NCBI RefSeq assembly: GCF_001535545.1
Contig: NZ_CP014142.1
Coordinates: 36,169 to 68,168 of the forward strand
Origin: Thermus parvatiensis
GTDB taxonomy: Bacteria > Deinococcota > Deinococci > Deinococcales > Thermaceae
Reading direction: 5' to 3'
Length of the DNA stretch: 32,000 bases
The translations under genes and the position numbers were made by a program. Positions 30,110 through 31,104 of the stretch are shown here, piece after piece. Below the pieces are notes generated by a model. It was not told where the DNA came from. It saw only the letters and a list, made by a program, of their open reading frames with translations, and did not search any database. Numbering within the stretch: the stretch's first letter is position 1; each line of letters starts with the position of its first letter.

Positions 30110-30146
30110 ACCTTACCTCCTTTCTTCGCTATTTTCGCCTGCCTTC

Positions 30147-30330
30147 CTGCAACGTAGCCAAGCTGTGAAGCTTGGATGTAACTCCTCTGGGACTTCAGCC
30201 GGCACCTTCCCCTGGACCCTCCTGCAACGTAGCCAAGCTGTGAAGCTTGGATGTAACGTTCGGGCCTCTGCCGTTTTGAGGAGAGGAGGAGGAGCTGCAA
30301 CGTAGCCAAGCTGTGAAGCTTGGATGTAAC
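30147..30330. CRISPR. Mini CRISPR array X: 3 repeats of 36 nt with two spacers (39 and 37 nt)
   Basis: CTGCAACGTAGCCAAGCTGTGAAGCTTGGATGTAAC occurs at 30147-30182, 30222-30257 and 30295-30330. It has an internal 7-bp hairpin CCAAGCT/AGCTTGG. The spacers are unique. Confidence 0.75.
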
Positions 30331-30357
30331 GGCCCAGCGCCCAGGCGAAAACCCCTT

Positions 30358-31104
30358 GTTTCAATCCTCACCGGCCCTTTCGGGCCGGTGCAACAGGGGT
30401 TGACCAAGGGGAGGTCCTGAGGGGGGCCGGGGTTTCAATCCTCACCGGCCCTTTCGGGCCGGTGCAACGGTAAGCGGTGTACGTCTTCTGTGCCTCCTGG
30501 GGAGGTTTCAATCCTCACCGGCCCTTTCGGGCCGGTGCAACGAGCCTTCCCTCCTCGTCCGTGCGGGGCCAGAGGGTGTTTCAATCCTCACCGGCCCTTT
30601 CGGGCCGGTGCAACCGGACTGCCTGGAGGGTGTTCACGGGCCGAAAGTAGTTTCAATCCTCACCGGCCCTTTCGGGCCGGTGCAACCTCGGCTCTCTCCC
30701 GGGAGAGCACACCCCCTTTGGGGTTTCAATCCTCACCGGCCCTTTCGGGCCGGTGCAACCCCCCTCGGGCTTGGCCTCCTCCTCCAGGGAGCGGAGGTTT
30801 CAATCCTCACCGGCCCTTTCGGGCCGGTGCAACCAGGGAGCTAAACCGCGAGGGGCGCGTCCTTCTTGAGGTTTCAATCCTCACCGGCCCTTTCGGGCCG
30901 GTGCAACCCCAGACGAGCATGGACTGCGCCCAGCAGGTCTCTTCCAGGTTTCAATCCTCACCGGCCCTTTCGGGCCGGTGCAACTAAGCGCCCGCAAGAG
31001 GGCATCAACCTCAGTCATGGGGTTTCAATCCTCACCGGCCCTTTCGGGCCGGTGCAACTCCAGCTGGTCGCCCAGTATGCCTCAAGCGGGATGGCCTTGT
31101 TTCA
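30358..31104 (-). CRISPR. CRISPR array Y: 10 identical 37-nt repeats, 10 spacers (35-40 nt), and an 11th repeat cut after 6 nt by an IS110
   Basis: GTTTCAATCCTCACCGGCCCTTTCGGGCCGGTGCAAC starts at 30358, 30432, 30505, 30578, 30650, 30723, 30797, 30871, 30948 and 31022, with GTTTCA at 31099-31104. The reverse complement ends in GAGGATTGAAAC, so the crRNA strand is probably minus. Confidence 0.95.

Follow-up and report, generated by a model that had tools for sequence, protein, structure and literature searches.

Close to one end of the window, by which we mean the whole 32,000-nt stretch analysed here (C2:36169-68168), two CRISPR arrays with unrelated repeats lie side by side, and no cas gene accompanies either of them. 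The question is what these arrays are, how they came to adjoin and whether they can still serve immunity. The reading we favour, to which we give a probability of about 0.8, is that they are a type I-G and a type I-C array, orphaned when a deletion took away their cas genes and brought the two together, so that the locus would represent immune-locus decay and the arrays its inactive relics. The locus is, on this reading, a case of ordinary decay of two known CRISPR subtypes and no new system, which resolves the oddity of an unrecognised repeat abutting a known one without cas genes.

Anatomy and distribution of the arrays

The replicon bearing the window, C2, is 143 kb long and the chromosome, C1, 1.87 Mb. 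Both have a GC content of ~68% and look closed, giving an assembly of 2.02 Mb in two contigs, with completeness estimated at 87%. The DNA around the arrays is 94-97% identical to Thermus thermophilus megaplasmids, and the host replicon is recognisable as a reduced pTT27-like megaplasmid of that species. Elsewhere on the same replicon (C2:119600-119900) short iteron-like direct repeats of ~17 nt are clustered at irregular spacing, and they may be the plasmid replication origin.

The anatomy of the locus was observed directly. Array X (30147-30330, minus strand) consists of three exact 36-nt repeats (30147-30182, 30222-30257 and 30295-30330), associated with type I-G as argued below, and two spacers of 39 and 37 nt; it appears to be the trailer-end stump of a once longer array. 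Its repeat forms a 7-bp hairpin. On the plus strand, one and the same base stands before 53 of the 60 X-type repeats, which in effect makes the unit 37 nt long. Array Y (30358-31058, minus strand) comprises ten exact 37-nt type I-C repeats, separated by nine full spacers that measure 35-40 nt. It continues, still on the minus strand, into a further spacer, the tenth, of 40 nt (31059-31098), and then into an eleventh repeat of which only the initial 6 nt (31099-31104) remain before an insertion element cuts the array. The Y hairpin has 9 bp, so that the 7-bp hairpin which the preliminary description attributed to both repeats holds for X and not for Y. Taking a CRISPR array to be at least three near-identical direct repeats of 23-50 nt with unique spacers of similar length, both X with its three repeats and Y with its ten are arrays. 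The exact repeats and unique spacers thus bear out the initial view of two genuine arrays with unrelated repeats, including their coordinates, their repeat counts and the 27-nt gap between them. Outside its own array neither repeat was found anywhere in the 2.02-Mb assembly, and reversed control patterns likewise gave 0 matches.

Among 185,579 species representatives, X-type repeats otherwise occur only in two, T. arciformis and Thermus sp. JCM 17653; 14 plasmids of T. thermophilus have them as well. In all of these they form arrays whose spacers differ from those seen here. These sister arrays contain 6-21 repeats with strain-specific spacers and always adjoin type I-G genes. It had been proposed that finding X units elsewhere without spacers would reveal a repeated regulatory or mobile sequence and not a CRISPR array. 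The local evidence by itself would allow this, as there are just three copies, no cas genes and two spacers without a protospacer. However, no solitary copy was found among the species representatives or in viral contigs, the latter yielding no X-like repeats at all, and the sister arrays, besides their length and their constant I-G neighbours, carry ten phage-matching spacers with a consistent PAM. The probability that X is anything other than CRISPR is hence negligible.

Subtype and strand of array X

The partners of X were observed directly in its relatives. In plasmid pTTJL1802 of strain JL-18, in SNM3-3, in TF19 and in T. arciformis, the X array sits between the same addB-like gene and a leader followed by a type I-G operon. 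In the orientation of the window, the gene order in these four relatives is addA-like, addB-like, X array, leader, a gene for a 337-aa protein, cas3, csb2 and cas7, with all genes on the minus strand; the leader is conserved, roughly 130-190 nt long, and lies directly to the right of X. The products match the expected families: Cas3g matches TIGR02621 with 666 bits, Csb2 matches TIGR02165 with 183 bits, and Cas7g matches Pfam GSU0053 with 77 bits, while the 337-aa protein reaches 61 bits, against a cut-off of 65, with the type I-G 'Cas3-extension' family. Since four relatives carry this repeat and this addB flank beside cas7g-csb2-cas3g, X is identifiable as the array of a Thermus type I-G (formerly I-U) module. 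Adjacency to cas7g, csb2 and cas3g is seen in those four relatives and not in this strain. Rfam does not classify the X repeat, which had no match among the CRISPR-DR families at E <= 0.1.

For type I-G the reported PAM is TTN, and in the characterised system Csb2 cuts the repeat, leaving a geometry of hairpin, 4 nt and 8-nt handle (PMC9638904). Like the type I-G arrays of Thioalkalivibrio sulfidiphilus and Geobacter sulfurreducens, X has a 36-37-nt unit that in the minus sense gives a stem-loop, 4 nt and an 8-nt tag; its PAM, 5′-TTC, falls within TTN, and its partner genes in the relatives are cas7g, csb2 and cas3g. Unlike those systems, the Thermus modules of the relatives have no annotated cas8g/csx17, cas1, cas2 or cas4, contain the 'Cas3-extension' protein and in every case have an AddAB-like pair after them; the present strain differs further in having lost the whole module and the leader, and its repeat is in no Rfam CRISPR-DR family. 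Among the papers searched, none characterising the Thermus I-G module was found. The present analysis thus supplies an in silico call of strand, PAM and handle for a Thermus type I-G repeat that is missing from Rfam.

The relatives also display, on one strand, the I-G module, then the array, then the AddAB-like helicase-nuclease pair in JL-18, SNM3-3, TF19 and T. arciformis (L025:11985-24390; L026:11985-25490; L069:6275-19535), and the same addAB flank is suggested in about ten further plasmids. The pair itself, a UvrD helicase and a PD-(D/E)XK nuclease, is homologous in 14 T. thermophilus plasmids. A functional link between the Thermus I-G module and the AddAB-like pair is possible.

The preliminary description took the two arrays to be probably transcribed convergently: Y would be read on the minus strand, and X on the plus strand from a leader within the 37 nt that precede addB. 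The plus-strand X repeat does place a 7-nt tail, loosely resembling a crRNA tag, after its hairpin, and the plus-strand fold is slightly more stable than the minus-strand one (-12.0 vs -9.7 kcal/mol). As a strand test for X, these folding energies were rejected as not discriminating. Five independent lines of evidence point to the minus strand of the window as the crRNA sense of X.

First, in the four relatives the leader and the cas operon, co-directional with it, are located to the right of X, that is, on the side opposite to addB. An exact TATAAT is present on the minus strand of the two homologous X leaders compared, and these two leaders, like that of the HB27 type I-C array, meet the first repeat with a G-run and then an A. 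A two-hexamer promoter scan of the JL-18 X leader returned nothing, and a promoter in the X leaders is proposed from the exact TATAAT and conservation only. Second, the sole degenerate X repeat stands at the addB end in three relatives, JL-18, SNM3-3 and JCM 17653. Third, in TF19 a variant repeat fills the three leader-proximal units, which fits new units copying the leader-proximal repeat.

Fourth, ten good protospacers of the sister X arrays were found in phages Lalka8, Lalka27a, OH3/phiOH16, phiLo and Riverbug. Type I systems have their PAM 5′ of the protospacer in the crRNA sense. The minus-sense 5′ flank of these protospacers reads CTTC in eight cases, CCTC in one and GTTC in one; TT occurs in 9/10 and C next to the protospacer in 9/10. 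The opposite flank has no motif, and plus-strand transcription of X would put the PAM on the wrong side for type I. This argument on PAM and strand draws on the spacers of the sister arrays, and not on the two spacers of this strain, for which searches of phages and plasmids gave no protospacer match. One of the phages, Lalka8, itself bears a CRISPR array (L071:4366-4843) beside a TnpB-family gene; it has eight repeats of ~30 nt at a period of 61-62 nt, with one spacer present twice, and its repeat is unrelated to those of X and Y.

Fifth, the minus-sense X unit reads as a 7-bp hairpin, 4 nt and 8 nt, and this arrangement corresponds to the Csb2 cleavage geometry of the characterised I-G system. 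The three consensus variants agree in the presumptive 5′-handle end and differ (T, C or A) in the opposite end, which would have to serve as the tag if X were read from the plus strand.

The flank next to addB agrees with this orientation. The 5′ end of the addB-like PD-(D/E)XK nuclease gene (29681-30109, minus strand) lies downstream of X and is co-directional with it, here and in all relatives examined. The intervening 37 nt (30110-30146, minus strand) include the ribosome-binding site of addB, and a promoter scan found nothing in them; they are identical in T. arciformis and near-identical in JL-18 and SNM3-3, where they also stand beside the terminal X repeat. From this conservation, the segment is interpretable as the trailer flank of X together with the addB 5′ region, not as a leader, and the initial placement of the X leader there is contradicted by the relatives, which have leader and cas operon on the opposite side. 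A convergent arrangement is therefore highly improbable. By all these signs X and Y are co-directional, both on the minus strand, and transcription would pass through Y first, then X, then addB and addA. Neither array retains a leader: where the relatives have their conserved leader, X is followed by the 27-nt linker and Y, and Y in turn runs into the insertion element.

The addB 5′ end and the 37-nt flank taken together (window 29950-30146) are identical in T. arciformis (L023:19700-19901), where the spacers differ. This suggests a recent interspecies exchange of the addB-flank region between T. arciformis and T. thermophilus.

Array Y and the cas-gene complement

The Y repeat is identical to that of the array beside cas3-cas5c-cas8c-cas7c in HB27 pTT27. 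The HB27 array begins on the left with a degenerate trailer repeat; to its right come a leader of ~200 nt and then cas3-cas5c-cas8c-cas7c. This match assigns Y to type I-C. Y is read in the minus sense, in which its repeat ends in ATTGAAAC. The Rfam family CRISPR-DR9 matches all ten Y repeats on the minus strand with 41.3 bits, a score that does not reach the gathering score of 45. Y thus shares with the HB27 array the repeat consensus and the same orientation logic, with a degenerate trailer repeat in HB27 marking the end away from the leader, and differs from it in having lost the leader and cas3-cas5c-cas8c-cas7c and in being truncated inside a repeat by IS1000.

Three Y spacers found their targets at 100% identity. 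Those at 30542-30577 and 30760-30796 match pTMY-type Thermus plasmids of 19-23 kb, and that at 30908-30947 matches phage Riverbug; their minus-sense 5′ flanks are TTC, TTC and TCC. A TTC PAM is typical of type I-C. No plasmid in PLSDB was found to share a spacer with Y.

The leaders of the Thermus I-G and I-C arrays were also compared with each other. They have in common a conserved block of ~40 nt and the same G-run junction to the first repeat (L025:18048-18260, L013:1150-1361, L037:12557-12770). Together, the common TTC PAM and the related leader motifs suggest that the two kinds of array may share adaptation machinery.

The initial statement that no cas genes occur in 30 kb not only holds but extends to the whole assembly, with one exception. 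HMM searches of the assembly detected no Cas1, Cas2, Cas3_HD, DevR/Cas7b, Cas7e or Cas6_C, and a RAMP HMM search gave one sub-threshold match only. As a positive control, a T. thermophilus genome matched Cas1, Cas2, RAMPs, Cas3_HD and Cas7e. When the JL-18 I-G and HB27 I-C proteins were compared with the assembly by tblastn, the one match, weak and 88 residues long, concerned the N-terminal part of Cas3u and lay on C2 beyond the limits of the window; no cas operon was found. Chromosomal matches to Cas3-like_C_2 were rejected as evidence of cas genes, because this family matches all 14 control genomes. The only cas-family gene detected in the assembly is a stand-alone Cas6 homologue on the chromosome (C1:1693363-1693704; PF10040, 72.7 bits; TIGR01877, 59.4 bits). 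Thus the strain is a natural T. thermophilus isolate without detectable cas genes except a stand-alone Cas6.

Cognate cas genes, which a functional CRISPR-Cas system needs in its genome, are absent from this assembly at its estimated completeness of 87%; because of this last figure, an unassembled replicon carrying cas genes is possible. One may then ask whether the composite array is still used, being transcribed from the leader-like flank beyond the insertion element (described below) and serviced in trans by unassembled or incoming cas genes or by the lone Cas6. X, Y and the remnant of a third array share one orientation, a scan of the region detected no terminator-like site, the chromosomal Cas6 survives and all repeats are still exact. 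On the other hand, the repeats of published I-G and I-C systems are cut by Csb2 and Cas5c (PMC9638904), both of which are absent here, and searches for genes of Cascade, Cas3 or a type III backbone found none. In addition, an insertion element of 1.16 kb separates the sole leader-like flank from Y. We consider continued use improbable. The arrays should be inert, given that Csb2, Cas5c, Cascade, Cas3 and Cas1-Cas2 are all missing. That they are neither expressed nor processed we infer from the gene complement; read-through transcription of both arrays, from the flank beyond the third array or from the insertion element, is possible.

Such a strain could offer a clean genetic background in which to try out Thermus cas modules supplied in trans, the targets being the TTC-flanked plasmid and phage sequences that its own spacers match.

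Junction, insertion element and a model of decay

The linker between X and Y (30331-30357, 27 nt, assigned to no strand) is shorter than every spacer of either array, and is presumably a deletion scar or a hybrid of truncated spacers. Comparison with PLSDB plasmids, with the strain's own genome and with the loci of the relatives gave only chance 8-18-mers. The junction shows no insertion element, no hybrid repeat and no recognisable homology, nor does it have the G-run junction that ends Thermus leaders. Here the trailer end of Y faces the expected leader end of X. The simplest reading would be a deletion ending in or next to one X spacer on one side and one Y spacer or the Y trailer on the other.

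It might be objected that the arrays come from separate places and were misjoined at this junction by the assembler, CRISPR arrays being hard to assemble and the completeness being 87%. Yet the X and Y repeats have no common sequence to mislead an assembler, the two contigs (1.87 Mb and 143 kb) look closed, and neither repeat occurs elsewhere, so that we find an artefact very unlikely. Self-targeting was also considered as a driver of cas loss and rejected: the spacers of the families designated X, Y, Z and W have no second match in the strain's own genome.

At its other end Y runs into an IS1000-like element of the IS110 family (31105-32000, continuing past the window to about 32265; plus strand). 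As proposed initially, Y belongs to the minus strand and has been cut off from its leader by this insertion, but the leader itself does not lie beyond it. Instead, the right end of the element abuts the half-repeat of a third family, Z, whose remnant (C2:68432-68536, past the window) consists of that half-repeat, one spacer and one full repeat. The Z repeat, as we take it, resembles a Thermus type III repeat. Beyond Z comes a leader-like flank of ~690 bp, fused to a cobalamin gene cluster. Promoter and terminator scans of the window region and of the flank beyond the Z remnant returned nothing.

The context of this insertion (copy A) is thus chimeric, with mismatched half-repeats, Y on the left and Z on the right. 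The window holds a second full IS1000-type copy (copy B), whose left end adjoins a repeat stub and whose right end adjoins DNA that is not repeat. The mismatched flanks of these two elements point to recombination between IS copies. A single element with mismatched half-repeats would be the product of recombination between copies in two arrays, with loss of the intervening DNA. IS1000-type copies or fragments at 31099-32000, 16466-17632 and 18874-19546 all stand at the same CRISPR-repeat position, after the first six bases, and in 11 other Thermus genomes this is also where the left end of many IS1000 copies adjoins a repeat. Blesa et al. (2019, PMC6352166) remarked that the IS1000 database entry closes with 32 bp identical to a CRISPR repeat.

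Taken together, these observations allow us to outline how the locus may have arisen; the order and mechanism of the deletions are deduced from what remains. A deletion would have removed the leader-proximal part of X, the X leader, the I-G operon and the DNA before the trailer end of Y, leaving the 27-nt scar and fusing X and Y tail-to-head. On the Y side, the leader and the I-C genes would have been lost; an IS1000 would have homed into a repeat and then recombined with a copy in the third array, so that one IS remained. Without effector or adaptation genes, the arrays could neither acquire spacers nor mediate interference, and they would persist as fossils of immune memory.

The outcome resembles the orphan (cas-less) arrays that remain after deletion of a cas locus, which have intact repeats, spacers derived from mobile elements and no cognate cas genes. 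It differs from the usual orphan arrays in that two unrelated repeat families, or three with Z, stand head-to-tail on one strand, and in that one boundary is marked by an element that appears to home to repeats under RNA guidance.

A more far-reaching interpretation, which we put forward tentatively and hold to be less likely true than false, is that the cas-less state is the end product of RNA-guided homing of IS1000 to the tag-coding end of CRISPR repeats. Recombination between copies would then excise cas operons and concatenate the leftovers, and the X-Y scar, which has no IS, would be an older or independent step. If true, this would mean that a selfish element is systematically dismantling host adaptive immunity.

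A fourth repeat family has also left remnants in the window, at 16402-16471 and 19116-19189, between IS256- and IS1000-type elements. Two IS1000-type fragments bracket a lone repeat of this family, and the repeat at 19157-19189 is opposite in orientation to X, Y and Z.
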